Shown here one piece after another: positions 30,738-52,709 of a DNA stretch of 64,000 nucleotides; the first letter of the stretch is position 1; every line of letters starts with the position of its first letter. This DNA comes from a virus. Under the pieces are notes generated by a model. That model saw only the letters and a list, made by a program, of their open reading frames with translations, was not told the DNA's origin and made no database searches. The translations under genes were made by a program, and so were the position numbers. The stretch spans positions 32,001 through 96,000 of IMG/VR virus record IMGVR_UViG_3300008259_004660. One strand, written 5' to 3'.

Positions 30738-31505
30738 TTATTCAAGTTTTACATCAAAAGCTTTTTCAAATGCCTTTGGTGCTTCTTTATAGCTTTCTTG
30801 AGTTTCATCTTTTGGATCATTCAAGTATTGCCAATTAAAACTTAATTCATTTGGAACTTTGAACCCAAAGAACTTCAAAACGTTCTTTTGTGTTTCCAAA
30901 ACTTGCTCACCGTTCCAATTTTGACCAATAAACACAATACCTGCATCTTTATCTTTAATAATGTTATCTTCGTTCAAAGTGCTGTGTCTGTTTTCAAGCC
31001 AAGTCAAACGTTCGATCAATCTTTGATATACTCCGTTTGTTTGTCCCCATCTTACACTGCCAAAAAATACAACTGCGTCTGACTCAAACAATACTTTGCT
31101 GATCTTCCATAACTCATCGTCTTTGTTGTTGTAGCTGCACCAACAACGATGATCTCCTGTAGGATTCTTGGTTTTGTCTTTTAGTGCTGCTTCTTTTACT
31201 CCACAATTATTTCCTTCGTTCTTACTGACGTTACCTTCACAATCATATATCTTCAATTTTGATACATCGATAACTTCAGCGTTTCCAATTTCGTTTGCAA
31301 CATATTCAGCTAGTACACTGCTCTTTGGTTTTTGTTTGTCACCAACCCAACGATTGCTCGTAGTAAGAATCAGCACTTTTTTCTTTTGTTTCAGGCTATT
31401 GATCAATTTGTCCAACTTGCCTTCATACTCTGCATTCTCATTCAACTGAAAATGCTCGTTCAGAAGCTTACGATGCTTTAAAAATGTTTGTTCGAAATTG
31501 GACAT
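30738..31505 (-). CDS. Flavodoxin-like / NADPH-dependent FMN reductase family protein with Cys cluster
   Basis: VLILTTSNR, KSSVLAE, CEG..C..CWC, SDAVVFFGSVRWG..NGVYQRLIERL. Confidence 0.75.
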   Translation of the reverse strand: MSNFEQTFLKHRKLLNEHFQLNENAEYEGKLDKLINSLKQKKKVLILTTSNRWVGDKQKPKSSVLAEYVANEIGNAEVIDVSKLKIYDCEGNVSKNEGNNCGVKEAALKDKTKNPTGDHRCWCSYNNKDDELWKISKVLFESDAVVFFGSVRWGQTNGVYQRLIERLTWLENRHSTLNEDNIIKDKDAGIVFIGQNWNGEQVLETQKNVLKFFGFKVPNELSFNWQYLNDPKDETQESYKEAPKAFEKAFDVKLE

Positions 31506-31563
31506 ATATATAAATATTATCATTTATTATTTTAACATAGATTATTTGATATTTATCTACTGT

Positions 31564-33084
31564 ATGAAAAACTCAAATGTATTGAGTATAAGCGTTGAAA
31601 ATGCATGGAAGCCGTTGCCAGTTTCAGAGTGGAATGAAGAAAATGCACGGCATCTATTAAACAGAGCAGGATGGACAGCGACACCAGAAATGTTGAAGCT
31701 TGCTGTTTCAGAAGGATTGGGAAAAACACTTAATAGACTTTTTTCTTTGGGAGCAATGTCAAAGGGAATTATAAAACCGCCTTCTGTAGTAAGATTTGAA
31801 AATGAGGAGAAAGAGCTTCAAGCATCATTAAGAGGAGCAACTTCACCAGAAGAGCGTGCAAAAATTCGCAGAGAAATACAAAACAAGGAAAGAAACGGAA
31901 TAAATGATTTGGCGATGCAATGGATTAAAGATGCCGCCGAAATTGAAAATTCTGCATTTTACAAGTGGGTGTTGTTTTTAAGCGATGTGTATGTAGTTGG
32001 CGCGGACAAAGTGAGAAACCCAACATTCATACATCAACACTTCCAAATCATAGCAAAGAACGCATATATAACTGCACCATCTCTAACCAAAGAAATATCT
32101 CGTTCACCTGCTATGATTCAATACTTGGATCTAAATAGAAGCGACAAAAAAGCTCCAAATGAAAATTTTGCCAGAGAACTTTTTGAACTGTTTGTGCTTG
32201 GAGAGGGAAATTACAACGAGAATGATATCAAAGAATCGGCCAAAGCGTTCACTGGATATAGAACAAAAGGTGGAGACTTTTTCATCAACAATCAACAGCG
32301 CGACATGGGAATAAAAAGCATTTTTGAAAACACAGGAAGATTCAGCGGTGATGATGTAATAGATATTGCATATAAACAACCATCCGCAGGAAGATTCTTG
32401 CCGCAAGAAATGATAAAGTTCTACCTTACGGACACAGAAATTCCAATACAATATTTGGACGAGATAGCTAAGATATGGAGAAGCAAAAATTACAGTCTGA
32501 GGACTTTGCTTGGATTGTTTTTTGGAAGCAATATCTTTTACTCCAAGGAATACAAAAGAAACTATATCAAGAGTCCTATTCATTTTTACTGTGGTCTTGT
32601 ACAGGATATGGGAATAAAAGTTTCGCCGCTTCAAAGATTGGTTACACAACCATTAAGATCAATGGGTCAAATGCCATTTTATCCACCAAACGTTCGTGGT
32701 TGGGTTGGTGGAACCAATTGGATAAATTCATCAACCATACAAGCAAGAAGACAAACCGTTGAAAATCTTTTCGCCACAATAGATGAAAAGACATTAAATG
32801 CCGATGAACAAAAACAATTATCATTGGCAAAGGAAAATGGAACATATGAATTTGTGTTCAACGAAAAATCGTTAGCCGAACTATCAAAGCTATCAAACAA
32901 GGAAGCATCTTTTGTTTTATGCCATAGATTCATAAACAATCCTTCAAGAGAAATTCTTTATGGGATTGAGAGATTTTTAGGTACCCCCACCCTCAAAGGA
33001 AAAAAAGACAGCGGCACTCCCACCACAAGATTGAAAAGAGCAATTGTTACGATACTACAATCGCCAGAATATCAACTATGTTAA
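31564..33084 (+). CDS. DUF1800 family protein
   Basis: ARHLLNRAG, PAMIQYLD, PNENFARELFELFVLG, PPNVRGW, SPEYQLC. Confidence 0.9.
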   Translation: MKNSNVLSISVENAWKPLPVSEWNEENARHLLNRAGWTATPEMLKLAVSEGLGKTLNRLFSLGAMSKGIIKPPSVVRFENEEKELQASLRGATSPEERAKIRREIQNKERNGINDLAMQWIKDAAEIENSAFYKWVLFLSDVYVVGADKVRNPTFIHQHFQIIAKNAYITAPSLTKEISRSPAMIQYLDLNRSDKKAPNENFARELFELFVLGEGNYNENDIKESAKAFTGYRTKGGDFFINNQQRDMGIKSIFENTGRFSGDDVIDIAYKQPSAGRFLPQEMIKFYLTDTEIPIQYLDEIAKIWRSKNYSLRTLLGLFFGSNIFYSKEYKRNYIKSPIHFYCGLVQDMGIKVSPLQRLVTQPLRSMGQMPFYPPNVRGWVGGTNWINSSTIQARRQTVENLFATIDEKTLNADEQKQLSLAKENGTYEFVFNEKSLAELSKLSNKEASFVLCHRFINNPSREILYGIERFLGTPTLKGKKDSGTPTTRLKRAIVTILQSPEYQLC

Positions 33085-33088
33085 TACC

Positions 33089-34324
33089 ATGAAAAATCTA
33101 CCACACACACGCAGAGAATTTCTAAAAGTATCATCCACGGGAATTGGACTAATATCACTTGGTCAATTTGCACCGGAATTTCTGGTGCAATCGGCAATGG
33201 CGTCAACTCCGTTGCCAGAAAAAGATAAAAGTATACTTGTAATTGTTCAATTGGCAGGTGGAAATGACGGTCTTAATACTCTTATACCATACGAGGACAG
33301 CAATTATTACAAACTACGTCCGAAAATAGGTATCAAGAAAAAAGATGCAATTGTTATCAATAACACACACGCTCTACATCCTTCAATGGCAAAATTCAAT
33401 CAATTGTTCATTGAAGGAAAAGCTGGCATCATTCAAAATGTTGGTTATCCAAATCCAAACCGCAGCCATTTCAGATCGACTGAAATATGGGAAACCGCCG
33501 TTGACAGCGACAGAACATCAACAACTGGTTGGGTTGGAAGATTCATGGACAATCAATGTTCTGGTGTGCCAATAAATTCAACTGATCCATTGGCTGTGCA
33601 TATGACAAACAACACGCCACAATCTTTTGGAGGAAAAAAACCACATTCAACATTTGGATTTGTCAATAGAATAAACCGAAGAGACAACGAAGACACCAGA
33701 AAAGTATTAGAAACAACATATTTAAATACCAATGGTGAAAATGACAATAGTACATTTCTGAAACAAACACTCATGAACACTTTGCTTACTGAAAGAAAAG
33801 TGCAGCAAAAATTGGATGAATATAAACCATCGCACAATTATCCAAACAGTAATCTTGCTACATCATTGAAGAATGTTGCCGCCATGATAAGAGCAGGATT
33901 TCCAACCAGAGTATATTTCGTATCAATTGGTGGGTTCGACACACACAGCAATCAATTGATAAATCATTCAAACCTTTTGACACAGTTGTCTGATGCACTC
34001 CACGCATTTCAAAAAGACCTTGAAGGTCATAAACTAGACAAACAGGTCACCACAATGACATTCAGCGAGTTTGGTCGCCGCCCAAATGAAAATGAAAGTG
34101 CTGGTACAGATCATGGAACAGCCGCTCCCCTCTTCGTAATTGGATCAAATGTAAAAGGTGGAGTTTATGGCACTGCGCCAAATCTTAATCTGAAGAAAAA
34201 TCAAGATGTTGAATTCAGCACAGACTTCAGACAAGTATACAGTACTATGCTTGAGAAATGGATGAATTGTTCGTCTGAAAGTGTTCTTGGAAGAAAATAC
34301 AATGGTTTGGATATTATCGTTTGA
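33089..34324 (+). CDS. DUF1501 family protein with Tat signal peptide
   Basis: TRREFLK twin-Arg leader; VIVQLAGGNDGLNT, NRSHFRS, GGFDTH, FSEFGRR, GTDHG, DFRQVY. Confidence 0.9.
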   Translation: MKNLPHTRREFLKVSSTGIGLISLGQFAPEFLVQSAMASTPLPEKDKSILVIVQLAGGNDGLNTLIPYEDSNYYKLRPKIGIKKKDAIVINNTHALHPSMAKFNQLFIEGKAGIIQNVGYPNPNRSHFRSTEIWETAVDSDRTSTTGWVGRFMDNQCSGVPINSTDPLAVHMTNNTPQSFGGKKPHSTFGFVNRINRRDNEDTRKVLETTYLNTNGENDNSTFLKQTLMNTLLTERKVQQKLDEYKPSHNYPNSNLATSLKNVAAMIRAGFPTRVYFVSIGGFDTHSNQLINHSNLLTQLSDALHAFQKDLEGHKLDKQVTTMTFSEFGRRPNENESAGTDHGTAAPLFVIGSNVKGGVYGTAPNLNLKKNQDVEFSTDFRQVYSTMLEKWMNCSSESVLGRKYNGLDIIV

Positions 34325-34355
34325 CAATTAAGGTGAGTAGGAATAAATTCATGAT

Positions 34356-34670
34356 ATGATCATAATCAAAACGATATACAGTGCCGGTGGCGCTTGCCCA
34401 TATCAATTGGAAGCAAAAACAAATGATGGCCAATGGTTTTATCTTAGATATAGGAATGGAATGCTAAGATATGCGATTGCTCCTAGTTCAGAATCTTGGA
34501 TGAAGCGAAAAGGTGATAGCGTATATGATTATAGCAAGAAAATCGGAGATGATCTTGACGGATTTGCCAACCACAATACAATATATCCACACCTCAAAGA
34601 ACTTGTTAAGTTTCCAGAGGACTTTAAAATAGACTCCAACGAGATTATTGACCCACTTGAATTAAAGTGA
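34356..34670 (+). CDS. Hypothetical protein
   Basis: GACPYQ..FYLRYRNG pattern; TTGACA promoter at about 34321. Confidence 0.6.
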   Translation: MIIIKTIYSAGGACPYQLEAKTNDGQWFYLRYRNGMLRYAIAPSSESWMKRKGDSVYDYSKKIGDDLDGFANHNTIYPHLKELVKFPEDFKIDSNEIIDPLELK

Positions 34671-34856
34671 TCAAGGAAAATCTTTGCTTCCGCTACTAGG
34701 ATTTGTATATCCTTGATACTCATCAACATCATCTGTAGTGGATGGTGTACTTGGAGTAGGTTGAGGTGTAGGAACAGAATTACTGTTCTTTTTCTTTTTC
34801 AAGAAAAATACTGCTGCGCCGCCAACCAAAATTAATAGTATTATTATCAACATCAT
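34671..34856 (-). CDS. Small membrane-anchored protein
   Basis: Hydrophobic N-terminus, KKKK stop-transfer, P/T/S-rich tail. Confidence 0.55.
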   Translation of the reverse strand: MMLIIILLILVGGAAVFFLKKKKNSNSVPTPQPTPSTPSTTDDVDEYQGYTNPSSGSKDFP

Positions 34857-34921
34857 ATTCAATAAGTATGTAGATTTTTCTATAAAAGTATTGACTTTTG
34901 GTATAAAATAAGTCATAGTTT

Positions 34922-35977
34922 ATGACAATGAATACATTGTCCGTAACTGTAAATGTTGACCAAACTCTACTTAATGCTCTTGAGCCATTTGATTACAAAT
35001 TTGATGGCACAAGTACATTTAGTCTACCATCGTTTGATGCTCCTAAACGCGATGGTAGTTGGGCGATTGGATTGATTGTTGGTCCATCTGGCACAGGTAA
35101 GAGTCAACTTCTAAAAAAGCATTATGGTATTACCTCAGAGCCTATATGGGATGCCAGCAAAGCTATTGCTAGTCAGGTTCAATATCAAAAATTAAGTGCC
35201 GTGGGATTGAATAGTGTACCGTCTTGGTGTCGCCCATATCATGTGTTAAGCAATGGTGAACAATTTAGAGCAAGAATGGCTGCAATGCTTGACAGCAATA
35301 CATCATTCGACGAGTTTACTAGTGTGGTTGATCGTACCATAGCAAAAAGCTGTTCTCACGCTCTTCAACGTCAAATTAGAAATGATAAATTGAATGGTGT
35401 TGTATTTGCCACATGTCATTATGATGTCACCGAGTGGCTGCAACCTGATTGGGTTTTTGATACACTTACACAGTCATTGACTGTGGGGAGGTCTCTTTGG
35501 CGACGCCCCGATGTTCATCTTTCCATCGAACGATGCGACAGTAGTTGGTGGCAAGTTTTTAAAGACCATCACTATTTGAGTGAAAACATAAACAAAGCAT
35601 CGCGCTGCTATATTGCAAAGTGGAACGACAACCCAGTTGGATTTGTATCCGTTCTTCCCATGCCAAGTGGAACTCTCAAGAATGCTTGGCGCGAACATCG
35701 TGTTGTAATTCTTCCAGACTATCAAGGAATTGGCTTGGGAGTAAGACTGAGTGATGCAATTGGACAGATGTATGTTGACGACGGCAAACGCTATTATAGC
35801 AAAACCGCACACCCTCGCATGGGAGAATACAGAAATAAATCCAAAAATTGGAAACCTACCAGCAAAAATATGAAAAACAGACAAGATTATAAAGCTGGTC
35901 ATGATAGGAAATACAGCAGTCAAAAACATGCGGACAGAACTTGCTACAGTCACGAATATATCAACAAAAGTTGTTGA
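34922..35977 (+). CDS. ABC-type ATPase fused to GNAT (Mom-like) acetyltransferase
   Basis: GPSGTGKS, LSNGEQFRA, FDEFTS; HHYL, V.PDYQGIGLG acetyl-CoA motif. Confidence 0.82.
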   Translation: MTMNTLSVTVNVDQTLLNALEPFDYKFDGTSTFSLPSFDAPKRDGSWAIGLIVGPSGTGKSQLLKKHYGITSEPIWDASKAIASQVQYQKLSAVGLNSVPSWCRPYHVLSNGEQFRARMAAMLDSNTSFDEFTSVVDRTIAKSCSHALQRQIRNDKLNGVVFATCHYDVTEWLQPDWVFDTLTQSLTVGRSLWRRPDVHLSIERCDSSWWQVFKDHHYLSENINKASRCYIAKWNDNPVGFVSVLPMPSGTLKNAWREHRVVILPDYQGIGLGVRLSDAIGQMYVDDGKRYYSKTAHPRMGEYRNKSKNWKPTSKNMKNRQDYKAGHDRKYSSQKHADRTCYSHEYINKSC

Positions 35978-41932: not shown

Positions 41933-42115
41933 ATGAAACATTCTTTGGAACTTAATAAGAACCAACTAGTAGCTACATTGTGTGCGCTAGAATTGTTCTT
42001 GGAGGATTGTGAACGTGAAGAGCATCATGGCAGCAATCCTATTGACCCATCATTCAAGAAGGGTGTAGAACAGACCATCAAGAAGTTGAACAAAGAATAC
42101 AAGAAACTTTCTTGA
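41933..42115 (+). CDS. Hypothetical protein
   Basis: Stop in next -35 box. Confidence 0.6.
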   Translation: MKHSLELNKNQLVATLCALELFLEDCEREEHHGSNPIDPSFKKGVEQTIKKLNKEYKKLS

Positions 42116-42147
42116 CTTTTCATAAATCCTAGATCAACATCTGGACA

Positions 42148-43539
42148 ATGCAAATCGATACCACAGGTTTGCTTGAACCTCAATTCAAGCACGTGCAGAA
42201 GCTCGTAGACTCACTGTATCTTAATGGTCATGCCGTGGATATGAGTGAGACGGGCACCGGAAAGACTTATGCGGCAGCGGCGGTCATTCGCGAAATGAAT
42301 CGTCCATTCGCCGTGATTTGTCCCAAGAGTGTTATTCACCAATGGGAAAAGATTCTGGCCAGCTTCAAACTTAAAGCCACTACACTGATCAACTATGAAA
42401 AGCTTGGTCGTGGAAACACCAAGTATATGAAGTGGAAGAAGTTGCCGGATCCCGTGCGTCCTTATCAGGAGAATGCCACTGCCGAACTTCCTCAGTTCAA
42501 TTTCGATCCCAACACATTAATTGTGGTTGATGAGGGTCACAAGTGCAAAGGTAATAACACCAGCAACAGTTGGATGATGATTGCACTAAAGCTTCAAGGA
42601 TATCGTGTACTGGTATCTTCCGCCACTGTTGCAACGTCTCCTCTTGAGATGCGTGCGTTTGGGTTTTTGACCAATCTCCATGCTCTCTACAACTTCAGAG
42701 ATTTTTGCCGAGTGCATGGTGCGGAATTGCTTCCACAGTATGGCGCGATGAGTTTCAATCTTGCGAGCCAAGCTGCACGCGAGTCTATGCTGAGACTTAA
42801 TGAGTATCTTTTCGATACCAGCAAGTGCGCAAGTCGCATGAAGGTAGAGGATTTTGGCAAGCAGTTTCCAGAGTCCCATATTGTGGCGGAAGCATATGAC
42901 CTTGGGTCCAATGAAGCCAAGATTCAATCCGTTTACGATGATATGGACGCCGAGTTGGCCAAGCTTGAAGAGAAGGCTCAGAACTACAGCGAACACGTGT
43001 TTGCCGTGATGATGGAGGCTCGTCGCAAGGCAGAACTTTGCAAGGTGCCGCTATTCGTTGAAATGGCGGAAGATCTCTACGACGAAGGTAAGAGCGTTGC
43101 GTTGTTTCTCAACTTCACTGATACTGTGGATGCCGTCGTCAAGCGTCTTGAGAAGATGCCGAAATTCAAGGACCAAATTGGCTACATTGTCGGCGGACAA
43201 ACTGACAAGCAGCGCATTTCTGACATTGAGGCATTTCAATCCGACAAGAAGCGAGTGATGGTGATCAATATCGCTGCTGGCGGAACGGGTGTTTCATTGC
43301 ACGACCTCAATGGCAAATTTCCACGCGCCAGCATCATCAGCCCCAATTGGAGCGCATACAATATGCGCCAAGCATTGGGTCGAATCTGGCGCTTGGAAGG
43401 CAAGACCAAGAGTTATCAGCGCATTGTTTACGCTGCCAAGTGCATCGAGGAAAATATCTGCCATCGCGTTCAAGCCAAGTTGCAGTGCCTCGACACGCTC
43501 AACGACGGTGACCTCGCTGAGAGTTTGACTTTGGTGTAA
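42148..43539 (+). CDS. SNF2/SF2-type helicase-like ATPase (paralog 2)
   Basis: SETGTGKT, VVDEGH, SSATVAT, GGTGVSLHDLNG, QALGRIWR. Confidence 0.9.
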   Translation: MQIDTTGLLEPQFKHVQKLVDSLYLNGHAVDMSETGTGKTYAAAAVIREMNRPFAVICPKSVIHQWEKILASFKLKATTLINYEKLGRGNTKYMKWKKLPDPVRPYQENATAELPQFNFDPNTLIVVDEGHKCKGNNTSNSWMMIALKLQGYRVLVSSATVATSPLEMRAFGFLTNLHALYNFRDFCRVHGAELLPQYGAMSFNLASQAARESMLRLNEYLFDTSKCASRMKVEDFGKQFPESHIVAEAYDLGSNEAKIQSVYDDMDAELAKLEEKAQNYSEHVFAVMMEARRKAELCKVPLFVEMAEDLYDEGKSVALFLNFTDTVDAVVKRLEKMPKFKDQIGYIVGGQTDKQRISDIEAFQSDKKRVMVINIAAGGTGVSLHDLNGKFPRASIISPNWSAYNMRQALGRIWRLEGKTKSYQRIVYAAKCIEENICHRVQAKLQCLDTLNDGDLAESLTLV

Positions 43540-43549
43540 ACCATTGGAG

Positions 43550-43590
43550 TGGCGGGGGATGTGAGTGGTATCCATCCCTCGCCACTTTAT
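43550..43590 (+). terminator. Probable intrinsic terminator
   Basis: gtggcgggggat ... atccctcgccac followed by ttt. Confidence 0.5.
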
Positions 43591-43630
43591 TCTCGACTTT
43601 TTATAAAACATCAACCATACTGCTTGCACG

Positions 43631-43900
43631 ATGAACAACACCCTCACGTTTCACTCTGACGCTGGTCACGGTTGGCTGGAAGTCTCTGATCGCGATCTGG
43701 CTGATCTTCACGCCACTCCGAAGTACTTCTCTGGTTACAGCTATCGCAAGGGCAACCGCTACTTTCTTGAGGAAGACTGCGATGCGCCGAAGTTCATTGC
43801 CTTGTTCAAAGCTAAGTATGGTGAAAAGCCCACCATTGAAGAGCAGTATCACGATGGTGACTTTGTTGAGGACAACAATCTGAACAGCATCCGATTCTAA
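43631..43900 (+). CDS. Conserved MGE hypothetical protein
   Basis: FHSDAGHGWL ... YFLEEDCDA pattern. Confidence 0.7.
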   Translation: MNNTLTFHSDAGHGWLEVSDRDLADLHATPKYFSGYSYRKGNRYFLEEDCDAPKFIALFKAKYGEKPTIEEQYHDGDFVEDNNLNSIRF

Positions 43901-43901
43901 A

Positions 43902-44183
43902 ATGAAAACATCCACACTTCCTGTAAATTATGTGAACTGCCGATGCGTTACTATGAGCGCATTGGCAGGAATAAGTCGGGATGCTTCTGAAGCAATCAGC
44001 AGCCTGTATATTTCAGACATTGATCTGCATCTTGGACATAATGGAACTGGCACACTTATTTCCAATCGTGCTTTCATTGATCTGTTGGCAAAGGTTGTGC
44101 CAAACAAGCATCTTGGCTACGAGCAAATCATTCAAGCCATCAATGATCTTGACGACGACATTCACATCGACCTTGAGAATTAA
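43902..44183 (+). CDS. Hypothetical protein (paralog-like of 49786)
   Basis: TLISNRAFIDLL...DIHIDLEN vs RTLIDIPHFLRLL...EVYIDLEN. Confidence 0.6.
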   Translation: MKTSTLPVNYVNCRCVTMSALAGISRDASEAISSLYISDIDLHLGHNGTGTLISNRAFIDLLAKVVPNKHLGYEQIIQAINDLDDDIHIDLEN

Positions 44184-44223
44184 TCCTTGACTTTTTATAA
44201 ATTATCCCTAGACTGATTGGACG

Positions 44224-44424
44224 ATGAAAACCTACCGCATCTACACTCCTTGGGACAACATCACCATTGAAGCGAAGAACGCCAAGCAGGCTCGCATTGA
44301 AGCTGTGAAGCAACTGCTTTACGAGATTGAGACAGATTGCGGAGCTTCCCTCGACATTGAGGAAGTTGAAGAAGAGACGAATGGATTTGATGGCGTCGGT
44401 GCTGTTGACCAAACTGGCATTTAA
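44224..44424 (+). CDS. Hypothetical protein
   Basis: Promoter cassette at 44188. Confidence 0.65.
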   Translation: MKTYRIYTPWDNITIEAKNAKQARIEAVKQLLYEIETDCGASLDIEEVEEETNGFDGVGAVDQTGI

Positions 44425-44464
44425 TCCTTGACTTTTTATAATTCTCTGTTAGAGTATTACCACG

Positions 44465-44701
44465 ATGAAAAACGAACTCGCAATCAAGCTCGTCGCTGCT
44501 GCCGACAAGTATCGTGCAGTTGAGCGTAACTATGAGGGTGCTGCTGAAGTGGTCCAATCAGATTACGAAGACCTCATCAGCATTGCTGGTATGATTGAAA
44601 ACAACGAGAGTAAGAAATCCATATCCAATGCTATGTGGAATCTTGACACTCTTGTGCGCGATGTTATTCCTGATAAAGTTTATAACGCTTACAACCGATG
44701 A
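44465..44701 (+). CDS. Hypothetical protein
   Basis: Promoter cassette, CACG-ATG. Confidence 0.65.
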   Translation: MKNELAIKLVAAADKYRAVERNYEGAAEVVQSDYEDLISIAGMIENNESKKSISNAMWNLDTLVRDVIPDKVYNAYNR

Positions 44702-44862
44702 AAACATACACGGCTGAAGTTACTGTTCGTCTCAAGATCAACGCGAACAGTGAAGACGATGCGCGTTATGCGCTTCAAGAAATGGATTATTCGTTTGACT
44801 TTATTCAAGACCGCGCCGAAATTACTAGCTCCGAAATCACCGATCAACTCATCAAGGACTAA
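44698..44862 (+). CDS. Hypothetical protein, 54 aa (not in ORF track)
   Basis: ATGA overlap; MKTYTAEVTVRLKINANSEDDA. Confidence 0.6.
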   Translation: MKTYTAEVTVRLKINANSEDDARYALQEMDYSFDFIQDRAEITSSEITDQLIKD

Positions 44863-44864
44863 CA

Positions 44865-45269
44865 ATGGCTAACTATTACGAACAGGCTCGCACCAATTAT
44901 TTCAACGTCAAGGACGCTGCTGCATTCCAAAAGTTTATTGAGACATTCAGAGGTATTGATCTTGTTGTTCAAGAGCAGACTGGACAGTATGCTCTGCTTT
45001 TTGACGAGACTGGCATTCCTTGTTCTATCTACGACGAGGAGACTGATGACCACATTGATGTTGATTTTCCTTACGAAGTTTCACAACATCTGACCGATGA
45101 CAGCATTGCTGTTTTCGAAGCGATTGGTAGTGAAAAGATGCGCTATCTTTGCGGCTATGCCATTGCGGTCAATAGCAAGGGAGAGCGTGAGGACATTAAC
45201 ATCTCTGAAATCTATGCACGCGCCAAGGAAAAGTTTGGCGTGAAAGAAATTGGCGAGGCGAGTTATTGA
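44865..45269 (+). CDS. Hypothetical protein
   Basis: MANYY..ARTNYFNVKD pattern. Confidence 0.7.
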   Translation: MANYYEQARTNYFNVKDAAAFQKFIETFRGIDLVVQEQTGQYALLFDETGIPCSIYDEETDDHIDVDFPYEVSQHLTDDSIAVFEAIGSEKMRYLCGYAIAVNSKGEREDINISEIYARAKEKFGVKEIGEASY

Positions 45270-45309
45270 TCTTGACTTTTTATAAAATCTAACCAAACTA
45301 ACTAATACT

Positions 45310-45843
45310 ATGGGATACACAACTGACTTCAATGGTGACTTTGGTCTTGATAAGGTGCTCGCCCCCGAGCACAAAGCCTACTTGCAAAAGTTTGCTCAAA
45401 CGCGCAGAATGAAGCGCAAGGAAGAGCTTACGCTTGAACGCGAAGACCCTATCCGCGATGCTGCGGAACTTCCCGTCGGCTATGACGGTGCATATTTTGT
45501 CGGTGAATTGGGAGACTTTGGTCAAGGAATCGGACACAATCAAAAAGGCATTCCCGACCTTGTTGACTATAACAATCCTCCGTCTGGTCAGCCAAGTCTG
45601 TGGTGTCAATGGACTCCGAGCGATGATGGTTATTCAATCAAATGGGACGGTGGTGAGAAGTTCTATCATTATGTGGAGTGGATTGAGTATCTCATCGAAC
45701 ACTTCCTTAAGCCGTGGGGTTACACTCTTAACGGCGAGGTGGAGTGGTATGGCGAGGACGCCAATGATCGCGGCATGATTGTTATTGACAACAACGTTGT
45801 TAAGACCAAGATTGCTCGTATTGTTTACGAAGACGCCGAATAA
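45310..45843 (+). CDS. Conserved phage hypothetical protein
   Basis: MGYTTDFNG ... PSLWCQW ... WDGGEKFY.YVEWIEYLI..FL. Confidence 0.75.
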   Translation: MGYTTDFNGDFGLDKVLAPEHKAYLQKFAQTRRMKRKEELTLEREDPIRDAAELPVGYDGAYFVGELGDFGQGIGHNQKGIPDLVDYNNPPSGQPSLWCQWTPSDDGYSIKWDGGEKFYHYVEWIEYLIEHFLKPWGYTLNGEVEWYGEDANDRGMIVIDNNVVKTKIARIVYEDAE

Positions 45844-45844
45844 A

Positions 45845-46036
45845 ATGAGCAACAAGCAATACTATACAGACAACAAAGGTAGATGGATTGGTTCTGTCAC
45901 CACCGAAAGCAATGGTCGCAAGACCATTTTGGATAACAAAGGTGCTCTACTCGGTCGAGTGCACGATGGTAAGACACTTGACAACAAAGGAGCATTTTTT
46001 GGACGCGGAGATCAATCACAAAGACTGTTCAAGTAA
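45845..46036 (+). CDS. Small beta-repeat protein
   Basis: Three D-N-K-G repeats (YTDNKGRWIG, ILDNKGALLG, TLDNKGAFFG). Confidence 0.6.
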   Translation: MSNKQYYTDNKGRWIGSVTTESNGRKTILDNKGALLGRVHDGKTLDNKGAFFGRGDQSQRLFK

Positions 46037-46042
46037 AATTTG

Positions 46043-46315
46043 ATGACAAACAACGACACCGTAAAAATTCTTATCATTGATAGCGCCAAGACGCCGATTC
46101 ATACAGAGAAGTATGAATTCAATGCCACTGACGCTGATAAAATCAAAGAGACAATTCTTTCATCTCTTAATCGACTTGGCAAAGCAACACATGCATTAAT
46201 CAAGTACAAGAACGAGTATTTTATTGCAGATCATACTGCACAAGGTAAGAATATGTCTGAAACATATTATCGCCACAAGATCAAGTATCATCCGTTTATG
46301 AAGTATTTAGCATGA
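46043..46315 (+). CDS. Hypothetical protein
   Basis: ATG 46043. Confidence 0.55.
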   Translation: MTNNDTVKILIIDSAKTPIHTEKYEFNATDADKIKETILSSLNRLGKATHALIKYKNEYFIADHTAQGKNMSETYYRHKIKYHPFMKYLA

Positions 46316-46542
46316 ACATCTATCATCTAGACATCAAAGATAAAGAAGATCATCAGTTTGACATTGATTATCATTTTTCTCATCCTACAAAAGGTGCATC
46401 AAATCTGTATGATGATTTCTACACAGCATATGACAAGGTAAGTGAAAGTGAGAATGATTGGAACATTGTTGACATTTTAAATGAACTTGGTAATATGGGA
46501 TGGACAAAAGTAGATGTTCTAACGGTAGATGTCTTTTATTAA
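46312..46542 (+). CDS. Hypothetical protein
   Basis: ATGA overlap. Confidence 0.55.
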   Translation: MNIYHLDIKDKEDHQFDIDYHFSHPTKGASNLYDDFYTAYDKVSESENDWNIVDILNELGNMGWTKVDVLTVDVFY

Positions 46543-46821
46543 AAAATTAAAAAACCATCACTTTTTTCTCGACAAATAGAATATATATGCTAAAGTAGAA
46601 TTGTTCTTTAAATAACATAGATAGGTAAGCATCCCTTTGATGAACCTACGGTGCGCATATCGCGCCGCCAGAATAATACAAGCTACAGACAGAGATGAAA
46701 GAAGCAAGTAGAGATAATGGTGGAGAGAAAGCGACAAACAAACATAGACAAAGATCATTGCTTGGTTAAATCGTAGGCTGTGGATGGATGGAGAATCAGT
46801 CGGTTTGAAAAATAATTTTGT

Positions 46822-46896
46822 GGCAGGGTAGAGTATGCGGTAACTCGTCACGCTCATAATGTGAAGCAACGGATTCAAACGCCGTCCCTGCTCCCA
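46822..46896 (+). tRNA. Divergent tRNA with CAT anticodon (Met-like, non-canonical T-arm)
   Basis: GGCAGGG/CCCTGCT acceptor, GAGT/ACTC D-stem, TCACG-CTCATAA-TGTGA, T-loop TTCAAAC with A53:G61 mismatch, 3' CCCA. Confidence 0.6.
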
Positions 46897-46937
46897 ATTT
46901 TGTATGTGTCCTGCGACGGGGCATACAAGAAAAAAAG

Positions 46938-46971
46938 AAAAGACCACGCTCCCGAAGGCGTGGTCTTTTTT
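46938..46971 (+). terminator. Intrinsic terminator
   Basis: aaagaccacgc/gcgtggtcttt stem plus T-run. Confidence 0.75.
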
Positions 46972-47010
46972 CTTGACTTTTTTAAAAAAAGTCTCCAAGA
47001 TGTTCGCACG

Positions 47011-47157
47011 ATGAAACCCTGCGTCAAGGTTGGAAACAAACTCATTCCACGCAAAAACGTGGAGTTTATTGATATTGAAGAGTGTCCTCTTACTGGCAGA
47101 GATATCATCACGTTTGAATACAAAGGCAATATTCACAAGTCTTATCTCTTTATCTAA
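47011..47157 (+). CDS. Hypothetical protein, 48 aa
   Basis: Promoter cassette at 46974, CACG-ATG. Confidence 0.6.
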   Translation: MKPCVKVGNKLIPRKNVEFIDIEECPLTGRDIITFEYKGNIHKSYLFI

Positions 47158-47158
47158 A

Positions 47159-47497
47159 ATGAACATCGACTCTATTAGCATCAATGAGTATGATCTGCCC
47201 ATGATCATTCGCAACAATGTGCGAATTGATTGGGTCAATCTTGGTGAAGGAAATGATGGGGATTATGACCCAACTGACAAGTATGATGAAAACCTTCTTC
47301 GTTTTGATGTTTATCGCTTCGACGGCAAGGAGTGGGAAGCTATTGAAGATGGTAGCTATTGCACTCAAGTAGCTGCTGGTACAGACCAAAAGATTTTGAT
47401 TGAACATCTTCGTCACTTTATGGACACCATCTATGACGATGTTTCCACACACGGCAAAGCAAAGCGACTCTGCGAACAGCTTTCTTGGATTGAATAA
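47159..47497 (+). CDS. Hypothetical protein
   Basis: LGEGNDGDYDP..D.NLLRFDV ... SYCT pattern. Confidence 0.65.
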   Translation: MNIDSISINEYDLPMIIRNNVRIDWVNLGEGNDGDYDPTDKYDENLLRFDVYRFDGKEWEAIEDGSYCTQVAAGTDQKILIEHLRHFMDTIYDDVSTHGKAKRLCEQLSWIE

Positions 47498-47500
47498 TTC

Positions 47501-47537
47501 TTGACTTTTTATAAAATTAATGTAGGATGGTCGCACG
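47501..47537 (+). promoter_or_regulatory. Representative early-type promoter cassette (TTGACT-N16-YANNNT-N7-10-ATG), repeated dozens of times 15.7-59.6 kb
   Basis: TTGACT 47501, spacer ttttataaaattaatg, TAGGAT 47523, ggtcgcacg, ATG 47538; same layout at e.g. 20454, 20816, 22003, 42112, 44428, 45272, 46974, 49241, 49750, 52468, 54161, 55593, 58841, 59306. Confidence 0.85.
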
Positions 47538-48257
47538 ATGAACGAACTACTCCTCGCCAAACTCAAGAAGCTCCTCAATCTCAGCAAGTCCGCCAACATT
47601 CACGAGGCGGAGCTTGCTCTCCAAAAGGCTACGGCAATGGCGGCAGAAGCTGGTATCGACCTTGCGATGGTAACTGCCAAGGCTGACAGCGAGGCTGAGA
47701 AGCTGGAAATGGTGCAGGAGACTGCCTTCAATGGCAAGCGTCTGCCTAGCCTTCAGAAGTATGCCTCTTGGCTCCTAAACAAGCATTTCAATGTCCACGT
47801 GATTTATTCTGGCGGGCGCTACTTTGGTCGCAGCGTCAACATTCTCGGAGACAAGCGTGATGTCGAGTTTGCCAAGTTCGTCAACGAGTTTGTGCAGGAT
47901 GATATGCAGCGCCGTTGGGAGTATTACAAGAAGAGCAACGGTTTGAGCGTGCGCATGAAAGACACTTTCATGTACAACCTTTGGCGTGGGTTGGACAGCA
48001 AGCTGACCGAAGCCAAGGCGGCGGCGGAAACTGCCAAGTTCAACGCTATGCCGCAGGAGCAGGTGGCGGACACCAAAGCTCGTTATGGCATCGTGATTTC
48101 GGACAAGAAGGCGGCGGTGCAGCAGTTCGTCAGCAAGACTTATCCCCGCTTGTCAAGCACAAGAATTTCGGTTCGCAACTTTTCTAACTCGACAGTTGCG
48201 ACGGATGGGTATTCAGTTGGGCGTTCAATGAACATCAGCCGCCCAATCGCATGCTAA
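47538..48257 (+). CDS. DUF2786-like protein
   Basis: LLAKLKKLLNLSKSANIHEAELALQKA N-terminus. Confidence 0.7.
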   Translation: MNELLLAKLKKLLNLSKSANIHEAELALQKATAMAAEAGIDLAMVTAKADSEAEKLEMVQETAFNGKRLPSLQKYASWLLNKHFNVHVIYSGGRYFGRSVNILGDKRDVEFAKFVNEFVQDDMQRRWEYYKKSNGLSVRMKDTFMYNLWRGLDSKLTEAKAAAETAKFNAMPQEQVADTKARYGIVISDKKAAVQQFVSKTYPRLSSTRISVRNFSNSTVATDGYSVGRSMNISRPIAC

Positions 48258-48736
48258 CCTATCGCCAAAATATCACCCACTACCCACAGTTGGGAGCATA
48301 CAACTGTGGGCCTGTGGCCCTTTCCTGCCTCTTTGACACCTCGTTGGAGCAACTGGAGAAAATGGTGGAATGCGACAAAGACAAGGGCACGTACACCACC
48401 AAGGTGGTTGACGCAATGAAGCGTGAGAAAATTGAGTGCAGCCATATCTCCCTTAATGGTGACGGTGAAAACCATCTGTGGTGGTTGGAGCTTAACTCCT
48501 ACCGTTGGCCCATCTACCTTGGTTGTCACTTCATCGTGCAGGGCAAGCGTGGTCGCCCCAGCAACCACCATCACGCTGTGCTGCTCGCGAATGGTATGAT
48601 CTATGATGGCAACAGCCATCGTGAGGAGCCAATCGGTGCTGTCGCAGAGAAGTTCAACAAGAAGTTTGTTGTGAAAGATGCAATCATCTTCCATCATGAA
48701 TTGAAGGGTTGGAAACAAAATTTGGAAGCCGCATAA
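48251..48736 (+). CDS. Papain-fold peptidase (C39-like)
   Basis: Q..AYNCGPVAL ... HHAVLL..G.IYD. Confidence 0.65.
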   Translation: MLTYRQNITHYPQLGAYNCGPVALSCLFDTSLEQLEKMVECDKDKGTYTTKVVDAMKREKIECSHISLNGDGENHLWWLELNSYRWPIYLGCHFIVQGKRGRPSNHHHAVLLANGMIYDGNSHREEPIGAVAEKFNKKFVVKDAIIFHHELKGWKQNLEAA

Positions 48737-48968
48737 CTTTTTTCACGAAAAATTAAATTTTTTGTTGACTTTGTTTGGAAATAAAATATTTATCGGTGAT
48801 CCCTTTTTCTCCGATGAAGCTCATAATTTCCAGTGGTAAAATTTTAAAGGTCAATCACCCAAATCTTCCTATACCAGCCCCCACGCAATTACCCGCGCCA
48901 AGATTGGTCACAGAAAAAAAAGTGAAAAAGCCTTGACATTTTTTATTTTTTAATCATCCTAATTAGCA

Positions 48969-49142
48969 ATGAACACTTACAAAGTACCTGTTACTTGGAG
49001 AGAGTATGGTCATGTCTTTGTCAAGGCAGACAGTATTGAAGAAGCTATTCAAAAAGCCCACGATGAAGATTTGCCCCACGACAACAGCGAATATCTTGAA
49101 GGTAGTTTTGAAATTGATTACGAGGGCGTTCGCGCAATCTAA
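48969..49142 (+). CDS. Hypothetical protein, 57 aa (not in ORF track)
   Basis: TTGACA promoter about 48933; MNTYKVPVTW...VKADSIEEAI. Confidence 0.65.
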   Translation: MNTYKVPVTWREYGHVFVKADSIEEAIQKAHDEDLPHDNSEYLEGSFEIDYEGVRAI

Positions 49143-49148
49143 CCATAC

Positions 49149-49225
49149 GCGACCGTAGCTCAGTTGGATAGAGCAACAGATTTCTAATCTGTGGGTCGTG
49201 GGTTCGAATCCCACCGGTCGCGCCA
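49149..49225 (+). tRNA. tRNA-Arg(TCT)
   Basis: Canonical cloverleaf, ACAGA-TTTCTAA-TCTGT, GGTTCGAATCC, CCA. Confidence 0.95.
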
Positions 49226-49278
49226 TTCTAAAAATAATTCTTGACTTTTTATAAAAATCTGTCAACCTAATCAGCACT

Positions 49279-49746
49279 ATGGGACTAGATATGTATCTCA
49301 GCGCCGAGAAGTATATCTCGGGTTATGACCACGACAAGAATGAGAACTTCGGCAAAGTTCTTGATCTTTTTAATCTAAACGAGGATGATGTTCACAATTC
49401 TATCACGGTCAACATCACCGTTGGTTATTGGCGCAAGGCCAATGCCATTCATAATTGGTTCGTTCAAAATATACAGGATGGTAGGGATGATTGCCAACGC
49501 AGCTATGTTCGCCGCGAAAAACTACTTGAGTTGAAGAGTGAGTGTGAAGCTGCTCTTGCTGCCTACAACAATGGTGACAAGGATACGGCGGAAAACCTAA
49601 TTCCTCCTACTAGTGGATTTTTCTTTGGAAGCACCGAAGTTGATGATTGGTACAAGGCCGATTTGGTTGAAACCATCAAAATCATTAACACGTGTTTGAG
49701 TGATAAGTTAAATGGATTTGGATTTTACTACCAATCCAGTTGGTAA
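49279..49746 (+). CDS. Conserved phage hypothetical protein
   Basis: MGLDMYL ... YWRKANAIHNWF ... GFFFGS ... YQSSW. Confidence 0.75.
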   Translation: MGLDMYLSAEKYISGYDHDKNENFGKVLDLFNLNEDDVHNSITVNITVGYWRKANAIHNWFVQNIQDGRDDCQRSYVRREKLLELKSECEAALAAYNNGDKDTAENLIPPTSGFFFGSTEVDDWYKADLVETIKIINTCLSDKLNGFGFYYQSSW

Positions 49747-49785
49747 TACTTGACTTTTCTTAAAAAGTATCCACACTTCTACTCA

Positions 49786-50103
49786 ATGAACGCTACGAAC
49801 ATCGAACCTCAAACCTGCCACTACATCACTGCCAACACGTTGGCAAAGATGAGCAAGAATGCTGCCGAGGCTATTGATGCCTTGTTCAACTCTGATTTGG
49901 ATGTTAGCTTTGGCGATGCTAATCGCACTCTGATCGACATCCCTCATTTCCTACGCCTATTGGAGGATGGTATGGAGCAGCAGGGTATTTTTTGGGTTCC
50001 TCTTGGCCCCGATGATGACGAGACGCACCACGCTGGTTACGAGGAAATCAAGAACGCGCTTGACGAATACACTAACGAAGTTTACATTGATCTCGAAAAC
50101 TGA
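49786..50103 (+). CDS. Hypothetical protein
   Basis: ATG 49786 after promoter at 49750. Confidence 0.65.
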   Translation: MNATNIEPQTCHYITANTLAKMSKNAAEAIDALFNSDLDVSFGDANRTLIDIPHFLRLLEDGMEQQGIFWVPLGPDDDETHHAGYEEIKNALDEYTNEVYIDLEN

Positions 50104-50115
50104 AATAACACCACG

Positions 50116-50307
50116 ATGAAACTGACGCAATACATCCGCCAACTCCAAGAAATCGCCAAGAAGCAGCCTGACGCAGAAGTGATTTATGCGGCAGACGAAG
50201 AAGGTAATAGTTATTCTCCTGTTTTTTACGAGCCGTCTCTTGGTTATTTTGATGGAGACAGTTTTGACACCACGGCGAAGCCTGTCAACGCCATCTGTAT
50301 CAACTAA
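50116..50307 (+). CDS. Hypothetical protein
   Basis: CACG-ATG; V.YAADEEGNSY pattern. Confidence 0.65.
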   Translation: MKLTQYIRQLQEIAKKQPDAEVIYAADEEGNSYSPVFYEPSLGYFDGDSFDTTAKPVNAICIN

Positions 50308-50316
50308 TTTTAGCTC

Positions 50317-50392
50317 GGGCTGGTAGCTCAACGGTCAGAGCAGAGGACTCATAATCCTTTGGTTAGGGGTTCGAATCCCTTCCGGCCCACCA
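50317..50392 (+). tRNA. tRNA-Ile2 (CAT, lysidine type) most likely
   Basis: GGGCTGG/CCGGCCC acceptor, GAGGA-CTCATAA-TCCTT, CCA; resembles ileX-type rather than fMet. Confidence 0.88.
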
Positions 50393-50402
50393 CTTTTATC
50401 AT

Positions 50403-50588
50403 ATGAAAACAATAATCAACAAAATAAAGGAGAACTCCACACAACTTATTCAAGGACTGTTTCTTGGTCTTTTTCTAACAATGGGTATTTTCAACATCGT
50501 TGATGGCATTTTCTTTTCAAAGATTATGTGGCAGACGAACTGCGGAGTTAATCAGATCATCATCGGTGCAATCATGTCCAAGATTTAG
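50403..50588 (+). CDS. Small membrane protein
   Basis: Two hydrophobic segments. Confidence 0.5.
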   Translation: MKTIINKIKENSTQLIQGLFLGLFLTMGIFNIVDGIFFSKIMWQTNCGVNQIIIGAIMSKI

Positions 50589-50638
50589 TTCTTGACTTTT
50601 TATAAAGAACAAGTACTCTGTGTCTTGTTCTTTTCAAT

Positions 50639-50713
50639 GGTCTTGTAGCTCAATGGTAGAGCCGTTGACTTTTAATCAATTGGTTGTGGGTTCGAATCCC
50701 ACCGGGACCACCA
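50639..50713 (+). tRNA. tRNA-Lys(TTT)
   Basis: GTTGA-CTTTTAA-TCAAT, GGTTCGAATCC, CCA. Confidence 0.93.
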
Positions 50714-50717
50714 ATTT

Positions 50718-50792
50718 CGCGATGAACCCAAAGACAAGGAGGGGGTGGGCTCGGTTCCCACAATAGTGCGTGAAAGCTCGCACCATCGCACA
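50718..50792 (+). ncRNA. tRNA-like cloverleaf, CGG in anticodon position, non-canonical loops
   Basis: GCGATG/CATCGC, CCC/GGG, GTGGG-CTCGGTT-CCCAC, GTGCG-TGAAAGCT-CGCAC; no CCA. Confidence 0.55.
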
Positions 50793-50846
50793 ATTTTTAT
50801 TGACAATTTAGGTAGGTAAGTCATAGTTATCTTTGTTCTTTTTAAT

Positions 50847-50921
50847 GCCGAGTTAGCACAATGGCGGTGCAACTGTTTTGTAAACAGTAGGTTGTCGGTT
50901 CGAATCCGACACTCGGCTCCA
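50847..50921 (+). tRNA. tRNA-Thr(TGT)
   Basis: GCCGAGT/ACTCGGC, ACTGT-TTTGTAA-ACAGT, CCA. Confidence 0.93.
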
Positions 50922-51038
50922 TTTTTCAGACAGAGGTGCAAGTAAGTCGTCTACATCCTCTGGAGTACTGCATAAGGTGCTTGACAGCAGTAAATAACAG
51001 GGCTCATGATCCTGCCTCTTTATCTGAACATTTTTTAC

Positions 51039-51113
51039 GCCGCTATCGTCTAACGGTTAGGACGCCGGATTTTCATTCCGATAATCGGGGTTCGATTCCC
51101 CGTAGCGGTACCA
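51039..51113 (+). tRNA. tRNA-Glu(TTC)
   Basis: GCCGCTA/TAGCGGT, GTC/GAC D-stem, loop TTTTCAT, GGTTCGATTCC, CCA. Confidence 0.92.
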
Positions 51114-51118
51114 ATTTT

Positions 51119-51313
51119 ATGAACGATTCTCATTTACTTCCTCCTCAAGCAGACATTGACGCTGCACTTCAGATTGAAAAGAGTGTGAAGCCAAGTGAGC
51201 GTGAGCGTTATTTGGAGTACATGAACAATGTTCCTATGTCTGACCGCAAGACCGCAAGAGAATTGCGTGATGGATGTATCTTGAGCCAACTTTTCAATCG
51301 TTTTCGCAGTTAA
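51119..51313 (+). CDS. Hypothetical protein
   Basis: ATG 51119 just after tRNA-Glu. Confidence 0.55.
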   Translation: MNDSHLLPPQADIDAALQIEKSVKPSERERYLEYMNNVPMSDRKTARELRDGCILSQLFNRFRS

Positions 51314-51432
51314 AGTTCTTGACTTTTTTTAAAATCTGTTCATTCTATCTCTTGTCAATGAGGTTTGGAAGCCGTCAACTGCCTCATCATTAAATTCAGG
51401 TATTGCTGAATGGCGCGGCCCAATTTTTGTTC

Positions 51433-51539
51433 TTTGTGGCCACAAAAACCGGTGTCAGGGAGCCCACAGGGTTATCCCTTATTGTGGGGAACGCTAGTCC
51501 CACGGCTCCACGGGGAGTCTCCGGAAATCTAGCGCGCCA
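51433..51539 (+). ncRNA. Unassigned structured RNA candidate ending in GCCA
   Basis: GGAGCC/GGCTCC enclosing CCCACA/TGTGGG and AGGG/CCCT stems; 14-bp palindrome TTTGTGGCCACAAA at 5' end. Confidence 0.4.
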
Positions 51540-51589
51540 ATTTTCTCTTGACTTTTTTTAAAATCTGTTCATTCTCTTCTTTGTTCTTT

Positions 51590-52170: not shown

Positions 52171-52178
52171 ATTTTTAC

Positions 52179-52704: not shown

Positions 52705-52709
52705 ATCAT

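Follow-up and report, generated by a model that had tools for sequence, protein, structure and literature searches.

A DUF1800-DUF1501 operon of probable Opitutaceae origin, with a predicted Tat-exported product, in large T4-like freshwater phages

Introduction

The genes for two protein families, DUF1800 and DUF1501, have been described as an operon that was co-transferred with bacterial chitin synthase genes and whose DUF1501 product carries a twin-arginine translocation (Tat) signal (PMC5122149). In bacteria of the Planctomycetes-Verrucomicrobia-Chlamydiae (PVC) group, DUF1501 occurs with PSCyt/PSD partners and was inferred to be an exported, cofactor-bearing enzyme (PMC3542564; Kamneva et al. 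2012). Here, we analyze a DUF1800-DUF1501 pair carried by a virus. The window under study is a 64,000-nt stretch, bases 32001 to 96000 of IMG/VR virus record IMGVR_UViG_3300008259_004660; unless noted otherwise, coordinates are those of the window. We found no published report of the pair in a phage, and the sole phage paper found to mention DUF1501 concerns only a weak match in a 61-aa protein. The pair lies in a bona fide phage genome, has its nearest relatives in cells, and is under selection. We class it as an auxiliary operon of host origin; auxiliary genes as such are well known in phages, and this one is a new cargo. Our joint reading, to which we give a probability of about 55%, is that this Opitutaceae-derived operon provides a late-made, Tat-exported DUF1501 hydrolase with a hitchhiking DUF1800 subunit and so boosts a periplasmic activity of the host.

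The phage version shares with the operon of Opitutaceae and other bacteria its gene order, orientation, and gene lengths, a Tat signal on DUF1501 only, and all invariant residues. It differs in its setting in a phage genome, a phage-type promoter motif, a 4-nt spacer, a shortened signal-peptide n-region, and AT-rich codons, and in being without the alanine racemase and tsaB-like neighbors. The DUF1501-PSCyt/PSD (DUF1549/DUF1553) modules of Planctomycetes and Verrucomicrobia have the same catalytic family, a twin-arginine signal, an ever-present large partner, and likewise an unknown function; here, however, the partner is DUF1800, with neither signal peptide nor cytochrome c motif, and Opitutales genomes hold one or two pairs rather than dozens. 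A more distant likeness is to the nucleotide pyrophosphatases/phosphodiesterases (NPPs; Xanthomonas NPP, 2gsn/7mw8, and ENPP1-7), LtaS (2w8d), PbgA (6xlp), and choline sulfatase (6fny), which appear to share the core fold of DUF1501, with Asp/His motifs at the expected strand ends; DUF1501 is set apart from them by the lack of a detectable profile relationship, a different and poorly modeled cap region, and an obligate partner gene.

Two further kinds of system offer partial parallels. The phoA and pstS genes of cyanophages are phosphate-acquisition auxiliary genes of known function, linked to the host Pho regulon. Like them, the pair would represent host-derived, periplasmic-type nutrient-acquisition genes in T4-like phages of nutrient-poor waters, but the protein families are others and a phosphate role for DUF1800-DUF1501 is only a guess. 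In the Tat hitchhikers hydrogenase-2 (HybO/HybC) and dimethyl sulfoxide reductase (DmsA/DmsB), one partner bears the signal. The phage pair resembles these in being two co-encoded proteins with a single twin-arginine signal, but no redox cofactor is evident, and complex formation with DUF1501 and coexport of DUF1800 are putative.

The pair in T4-like lake phages

The DUF1800 gene (31564..33084, + strand) encodes 506 aa and matches Pfam PF08811 over the full profile (positions 1 to 419 of 419; E = 1.1e-79; 269 bits versus a cutoff of 26.1). The DUF1501 gene (33089..34324, + strand; 411 aa) follows in the same direction after a 4-nt spacer and matches PF07394 over profile positions 4 to 360 of 390 (E = 2.9e-32; 112.7 bits versus a cutoff of 27). 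These ORFs (open reading frames) and their profile coverage bear out a preliminary description of this DNA, which had called the pair full length and intact.

The record that carries the window is a single linear contig of 184,824 bp, ∼78% complete as estimated by CheckV; a simple ORF call gave 248 genes covering 94% of its length, nearly all on the same strand. The same contig encodes a T4-type portal (phrog_213; E = 3.7e-63), a gp23-type major head protein (phrog_138; E = 2.6e-73), a gp6-type baseplate wedge (phrog_219/6; E = 5e-19), and also SbcCD. It is thus a large, uncultured phage of the T4-like (Straboviridae-type) myovirus kind, from a freshwater lake.

About 12 related lake-phage contigs carry the pair at 71 to 90% identity. 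In a collection of 5.8 billion proteins, DUF1501 gave 13 clusters at 79 to 90% identity and then a drop to ≤66%, below which all named matches are Opitutaceae or Opitutus; DUF1800 shows a similar step, from 71 to 86% down to ≤53%. Contigs of the phage group came from IMG/VR and metagenome scans and include L009 (138 kb), L010 (30.9 kb), L095 (186 kb), and several short ones (in the series L091 to L097 and L100 to L102); the IMG/VR scans used short, subfamily-specific peptide patterns, so that the two or three contigs they returned are not a total count of phage DUF1501 genes. The gene order ThyX, w30173, flavoprotein, pair, w39120, w40088, w42148 is common to related contigs, and both genes are intact in L092, L093, L095, and L097. 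Independent phage contigs, among them the 186-kb one, repeat this arrangement, which upholds the earlier view that the pair is phage-borne rather than a host flank or misassembly.

A nucleotide search of INPHARED phages gave no match to the pair, and a protein search gave two matching records, both at ∼31% identity. We did not accept these as a cultured phage with the pair, since one is labeled UNVERIFIED_ORG and the other is a 6.9-kb fecal fragment. The former (ON170345.1, "Ralstonia phage YO375_1") is unannotated and is probably bacterial DNA. NCBIfam and PHROGs hold no family for either protein.

Cellular relatives and the donor lineage

We scanned one genome per species from 185,579 species, which returned 587 relatives. 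The best 80 of these 587 are all Opitutales, at 51 to 64% identity, mostly labeled Opitutaceae, Opitutus, or Lacunisphaera, with a few mislabeled bins; the nearest cellular homologues reach 64% identity for DUF1501 and 53% for DUF1800. An affinity to Opitutaceae, proposed in the preliminary description, is thereby confirmed, as is its statement that the two genes are normally adjacent on bacterial chromosomes: wherever a cellular locus extended far enough upstream, DUF1800 was found immediately 5′ of DUF1501. The order tsaB-like gene, alanine racemase, DUF1800, DUF1501 is shared by 44 species-level Opitutales loci (within the set L011 to L090), often followed on the opposite strand by genes for UDP-glucose dehydrogenase and FtsH. 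Three large Opitutales genomes have one or two pairs each. Among 14 control genomes, Caulobacter vibrioides alone contained both families. Because the pair is widespread, syntenic, and low copy in bacteria versus patchy within one phage clade, we argue for transfer from cell to phage.

Maximum-likelihood trees of DUF1501 (95 rows), DUF1800 (87 rows), and the concatenate (41 rows) all place the phage copies in one clade, with a support of 100 in the Shimodaira-Hasegawa-like approximate likelihood ratio test (SH-aLRT). In all three, this clade lies inside the Opitutaceae beside the same metagenome-assembled genomes (MAGs; L011, L013, L016, and L042), with a support of 95 to 100 for the enclosing clade; the tree rows closest to it are P0016 and P0018. 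Since the three trees agree on a single phage clade with the same neighbors, the two genes were most simply captured once, as a unit. We take the donor to have been an Opitutales bacterium, probably one of the Opitutaceae.

Selection and codon use

We estimated dN/dS (the ratio of nonsynonymous to synonymous substitution rates) by the Nei-Gojobori method on unsaturated phage pairs. Phage DUF1501 gave 0.013 to 0.088 at dS values of 0.08 to 0.15 and 0.12 to 0.14 at a dS of ∼0.9, and phage DUF1800 gave 0.078; in closely related bacterial pairs, the ratios were 0.05 to 0.20 (DUF1501) and 0.11 to 0.20 (DUF1800). The phage pair is thus under strong purifying selection and is at least as constrained as in bacteria. 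Its GC content is 0.377, with 0.30 to 0.31 at third codon positions (GC3), compared with phage gene medians of 0.376 and 0.312 and with medians of 0.65 (GC) and 0.81 (GC3) in 72 cellular homologues; codon use is fully ameliorated to that of the phage. Ameliorated codons together with purifying selection argue for an old capture whose genes have been kept working. Two claims of the preliminary description, recoding to the AT-rich style of the phage (GC3 of 0.30 versus 0.81 in cells) and maintenance of the pair, hold up under these analyses.

These data bear on the notion that the pair is a nonworking set, either host DNA joined on by chimeric assembly or a recent, decaying passenger. Such a reading could appeal to L009, in which the pair is split by frameshifts, and to the one frameshift in the DUF1800 gene of L010. 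However, the L009 assembly (IMGVR_UViG_3300045125_000101) is also shifted in ThyX, the flavoprotein, w30173, and w39120; with frameshifts across so many unrelated genes, it is probably error-prone, and reading its broken genes as pseudogenes would be a mistake. In L010, the shift comes down to one A missing from a run of A relative to L095. Moreover, the arrangement is common to independent contigs from different samples, the composition of the pair equals that of the phage, and dN/dS lies between 0.01 and 0.14. We regard a nonworking set as extremely improbable.

DUF1501: signal peptide, fold, and putative active site

The DUF1501 translation begins with a twin-arginine signal peptide (residues 1 to 38; 33089..33202, + strand): MKNLPH followed by T7-R-R-E-F-L-K13, a mildly hydrophobic h-region (residues 14 to 33), and the cleavage site A36-M-A38|S39. 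The motif, h-region, and A-x-A site expected of a Tat substrate are all present. Retention of TRREFLK had been pointed out earlier; we found that [ST]RRxF[LIM] occurs in 113 of 120 DUF1501 homologues and that T7, R8, and F11 are invariant in a 51-sequence alignment. Some phage copies have TRKEFIK (e.g., L010:10001-10040) instead of TRREF(L/I/M)K, a natural RR-to-RK change amid strong purifying selection. TatC is encoded in three Opitutales genomes and is absent from the phage record. DUF1501 is predicted to be exported by Tat to the periplasm, from which we infer that the pair may be cofactor containing, as was proposed in the preliminary description.

The DUF1501 family is very large (>14,000 clusters at 50% identity), and the phage protein keeps 25 of 25 columns that are invariant across 71 family representatives at 33 to 52% identity. 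Invariant positions include G57-G-N-D60, H127, D284-T-H286, S326-E-F-G-R330, and G339-T-D-H-G343 (with D341 and H342); S126 and T64 are near-invariant. When we compared the AlphaFold2 model by Foldseek, all top matches belonged to the alkaline phosphatase superfamily, with LtaS 2w8d at an E value of 3e-4 (probability, 0.99) and further matches to PbgA/YejM, choline and carrageenan sulfatases, phosphonate monoester hydrolase, and autotaxin. VIA-align gave Z scores of 13 to 14 (best, 14.0) over ∼220 residues, at a root mean square deviation of ∼4 Å, to NPP-type phosphodiesterases; 465 chains of the superfamily had Z scores of ≥8. As judged from this model (mean predicted local distance difference test [pLDDT] score, 63), the core of DUF1501 is an alkaline phosphatase superfamily α/β fold. 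By analogy with other members of the superfamily, one metal would be bound by D60, D341, and H342 and another by D284 and H286, and the nucleophile would be S126 or T64; such an Asp/His set points to a two-metal phosphoryl-transfer enzyme.

Profile searches connected DUF1501 to none of the named relatives of this fold. In 51 DUF1501 members, PF01663 (Phosphodiest) gave no match at an E value of 5, and hhalign of the family profile with an Opitutales NPP gave a probability of 0.1; we therefore do not class DUF1501 as an NPP, which it resembles only in fold. Relaxed Pfam scans of 51 DUF1501 and 56 DUF1800 homologues found no second family, and PDB sequence searches with profiles gave no match.

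Sulfatases are among the fold matches, and degradation of sulfated polysaccharides is a specialty of the Opitutaceae, which raises the idea of a formylglycine-type sulfatase system. We consider it very unlikely: the formylglycine motif C/S-x-P-x-R is absent, the equivalent stretch reading N-R-S-H-F-R-S; PF00884 (Sulfatase) gave no match even at an E value of 5 in the 51 members; and Opitutales genomes have one or two pairs versus many sulfatases.

The best Foldseek matches, LtaS and PbgA/YejM, suggest another role, in which DUF1501 would act on a lipid or glycan as an LtaS/EptA/PbgA-YejM-like enzyme and remodel the envelope, either changing receptors (superinfection exclusion, or protection of progeny from debris) or weakening the envelope before lysis. 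The late-type promoter motif described below would suit such an end-of-cycle role, and in Opitutales the pair lies beside alanine racemase and near UDP-glucose dehydrogenase, both envelope-precursor genes; these cellular neighbors are, however, housekeeping genes and may reflect synteny only. Transferases of the LtaS/EptA/PbgA type are membrane anchored, whereas DUF1501 is without such domains, and soluble NPP phosphodiesterases rather than these transferases top the VIA-align ranking. In addition, the invariant D-x-H and D-H motifs suggest a two-metal hydrolase, not a one-metal transferase. Envelope remodeling is thus quite unlikely in our view.

DUF1800: a conserved, signal-less partner

The AlphaFold2 model of DUF1800 is confident (pLDDT, 92; predicted template modeling score, 0.92) and almost wholly helical. 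We found no credible structural relative for the whole 506-residue model: Foldseek gave a best E value of 0.2 and a VIA-wide comparison a best Z score of 5.6, on a helical hairpin, and the ESM Atlas returned only unnamed clusters at 0.88. An N-terminal hydrophobic segment is lacking in 117 of 120 DUF1800 homologues and in the phage protein. Invariant motifs include A-P-N-E-N-F-A-R-E and P-P-N-V-R-G-W. The C terminus reads P-E-Y-Q-L-C (33070-33084); an alignment of 56 homologues shows no variation at Y503 or at the terminal Cys506, and Cys506 may for this reason be a metal or active-site ligand.

Given that the two tightly coupled proteins have one signal between them, presumably either they assemble before Tat export or DUF1800 has a helper role in the cytoplasm. 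In the latter case, the operon would have the same origin, but DUF1800 would stay in the cytoplasm as a maturation or proofreading chaperone, in the manner of TorD/DmsD, holding DUF1501 until its metals are loaded. That DUF1800 is all-α and signal-less fits this idea, as does its position directly upstream of the Tat substrate in all cases, with a 4-nt gap and translational coupling in the phage. Known Tat chaperones, however, are far smaller than the 500 aa of DUF1800, which matched neither their structures nor any other. A functional site in DUF1800 itself is suggested by its surface-type motifs, which are strongly conserved, and by the invariant Cys at its C terminus. Two reports also speak for an exported partner: the alternative DUF1501 partners of planctomycetes are secreted (PMC3542564), and DUF1800 proteins were reported in the vesicle fraction of Entotheonella (PMC12981691). 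A purely cytoplasmic chaperone therefore appears unlikely, and coexport with DUF1501 is the arrangement that we prefer.

Promoter motifs and timing

The most enriched word upstream of genes in the record is ATATTTAT(A), which as a 7-mer is 11-fold more frequent than expected. Of the 44 copies of TATTTAT on the + strand, 30 are found no more than 60 nt ahead of a + strand start, mostly at 12 to 30 nt from the ATG. Genes behind this motif include those of the portal (genome 156863-156869), a 1,300-aa head polyprotein, and a 3,407-aa fiber (genome 173814-173820), along with other large genes of the late region. A copy, GATATTTAT (31548..31556, + strand), lies 8 to 16 nt before the DUF1800 ATG and is a candidate late-type promoter of the operon; the motif before DUF1800 is kept in L092, L093, and L097 and has one mismatch in L010 and L095. 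The T4 late promoter TATAAATA is depleted (6 + strand copies versus 17 expected), so the T4 late box is evidently not used by this phage. We propose ATATTTAT(A) as a candidate late-type promoter with very short leaders. Because the operon has the same promoter-like motif as virion genes, the pair would be made late; we infer that both are late genes.

A second motif, the CTTGACT(T) box, lies 35 to 47 nt before 18 starts, mostly of small genes in window 42100-59400 (genome 74 to 91 kb). It looks like an early σ70-type promoter with near-leaderless geometry.

The accessory cassette and neighboring genes

The pair belongs to a 3.4-kb accessory cassette (31524..34921) that contains DUF1800, DUF1501, and two small ORFs and lies between flavoprotein and GNAT genes. 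The first small ORF (34356..34670, + strand; 104 aa) has only a weak PHROG match and may be cotranscribed with the pair; in the window, L091, and L102, it comes after DUF1501, whereas L092 has it elsewhere. The + strand terminator-like site nearest to it, a hairpin plus T run found by pattern scan (34770..34790), may mark the end of the transcription unit, although it is weak evidence by itself because 5 such sites were observed versus 3.3 expected in 5.2 kb. The second (34671-34916, − strand; 81 aa) combines a single transmembrane helix with a tail rich in Pro, Thr, and Ser, as in PT-rich proteins elsewhere in the phage.

The flank diverging from the pair is a WrbA/FMN_red-like flavoprotein gene (30738..31523, − strand; Pfam FMN_red, E = 1.7e-5), whose product has ∼60 extra N-terminal residues and is widespread in large uncultured phages. 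The gene occurs in at least 94 IMG/VR contigs, along an identity gradient from 91 to 54%; among 80 IMG/VR flavoprotein contigs, only L010 has the pair within 10 kb (79 of 80 do not), and the flavoprotein adjoins the pair in none of 80 cellular loci. We therefore ruled out a functional tie between the two. In contig L109 (3942-5845, corresponding to window 30738-35977), 71 bp separate the start codons of the flavoprotein and GNAT genes, which are 82% and 87% identical to those in the window, and the pair is missing; it is likewise missing from L107, a 297-kb relative, and in L092 the pair is 4.6 kb distant from the flavoprotein. These absences, the many flavoprotein contigs without the pair, and its shifted position in L092 argue that the pair moves as a unit and is restricted to part of the phage group.

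Farther out, the pair has ThyX and a phage PDDEXK nuclease on its upstream side and a phrog_11143/GNAT gene on its downstream side. Six tRNA genes (two for Met and one each for Arg, Lys, Thr, and Glu) are found at 46822-51113; the GC content of this mid-window part is 0.41 to 0.48, compared with 0.36 around the pair. We also considered an alternative genetic code (TAG as Gln or TGA as Trp) for the ORF-poor region at 40 to 64 kb of the window, but neither increased the number of long ORFs; the region consists of many small early genes.

A model for the operon and the points against it

Our analyses indicate that the chromosomal DUF1800-DUF1501 operon of an Opitutaceae-like verrucomicrobial bacterium passed as one unit into a lineage of large T4-like freshwater phages, where it was inserted as the 3.4-kb cassette between the flavoprotein and GNAT genes. 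Sharing a promoter-like motif with virion genes, the pair would be made late in infection. DUF1501 would be a metal-dependent esterase with a binuclear-looking Asp/His set (D60; S126/H127; D284-x-H286; D341-H342), most likely a phosphoester hydrolase, that would fold and acquire its metals in the cytoplasm before the host Tat system exports it to the periplasm. DUF1800, translationally coupled, signal-less, and with a fold of its own, most likely binds DUF1501 before export as a hitchhiking subunit and would provide substrate binding. In this way, the phage may sustain or boost an activity of the host periplasm at a time when the host's own gene expression is failing; our best guess is that organophosphates of the periplasm or envelope yield phosphate or other building blocks for a genome of 185 kb or more with a high demand for phosphorus.

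Several observations weigh against parts of this model. As to origin, a phage-excluding clade of the 21 nearest Opitutaceae rows was not rejected by the approximately unbiased (AU) test (p-AU, 0.56), so that any one placement of the phage clade beside an exact sister lineage is tentative. Constraining 61 Opitutaceae-type rows to stay together cost 22 log-likelihood units for DUF1501 alone (AU p, 0.26) and 47 units for the concatenate under LG+G4 (AU p, 0.041), so that support for nesting is marginal; the groups tested were named after the tree was known, and the phage rows are deviant in amino acid composition. An earlier AU test (p, 0.0016) was discarded, as it forced four metagenome rows of unknown origin outside the held group. 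Phage GC is 0.39, versus 0.60 to 0.67 for the nearest Opitutaceae MAG loci; this gap allows for a present host other than the donor. The preliminary description had taken Opitutaceae affinity to indicate the host: the affinity stands for the closest and donor lineage, while the host assignment is an extrapolation from it, by which Opitutaceae-like bacteria are the likely host.

As to mechanism, we found no biochemical data for either family, nor a function, in the searchable literature, and no sequence-profile link of DUF1501 to NPP, sulfatase, or other named families. The AlphaFold2 model of DUF1501, built from 51 close sequences, is poor, and its signal peptide and residues 123 to 235, which include the putative nucleophile S126, have pLDDT scores of <50; the active-site geometry thus comes from the motifs only. 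The subclade of L010, L094, L095, and L096 has RK for RR in the Tat motif. Late timing is drawn from a single motif, and a supply of phosphate for DNA synthesis would fit early expression better than late. Overall, the evolutionary part of the model is well supported, whereas its biochemical mechanism is deduced.

A bolder version of the model is that the pair forms a new type of two-subunit periplasmic enzyme, sufficient by itself, in which a two-metal hydrolase of the alkaline phosphatase fold carries its signal-less partner, with an all-α fold not seen before and the invariant Cys at its end, through Tat, and that phages of PVC bacteria repeatedly capture DUF1501 because its activity limits their yield, for instance by way of phosphorus supply or of envelope turnover at a late stage of infection. 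We hold this to be unlikely.

Significance

Very few phages of Verrucomicrobiota are known, and the pair gives a host prediction for a clade of lake phages that includes contigs of 138, 185, and 186 kb. It also adds a predicted Tat-exported enzyme to the catalogue of auxiliary genes in freshwater phages. That the phage keeps exactly two genes of the bacterial locus, under cell-like selection, argues that these form a complete periplasmic unit that is useful during infection. If the pair does prove to be an enzyme of a new type, then the minimal unit kept by the phage would be the shortest route to assigning an initial function to these two very large, uncharacterized families.

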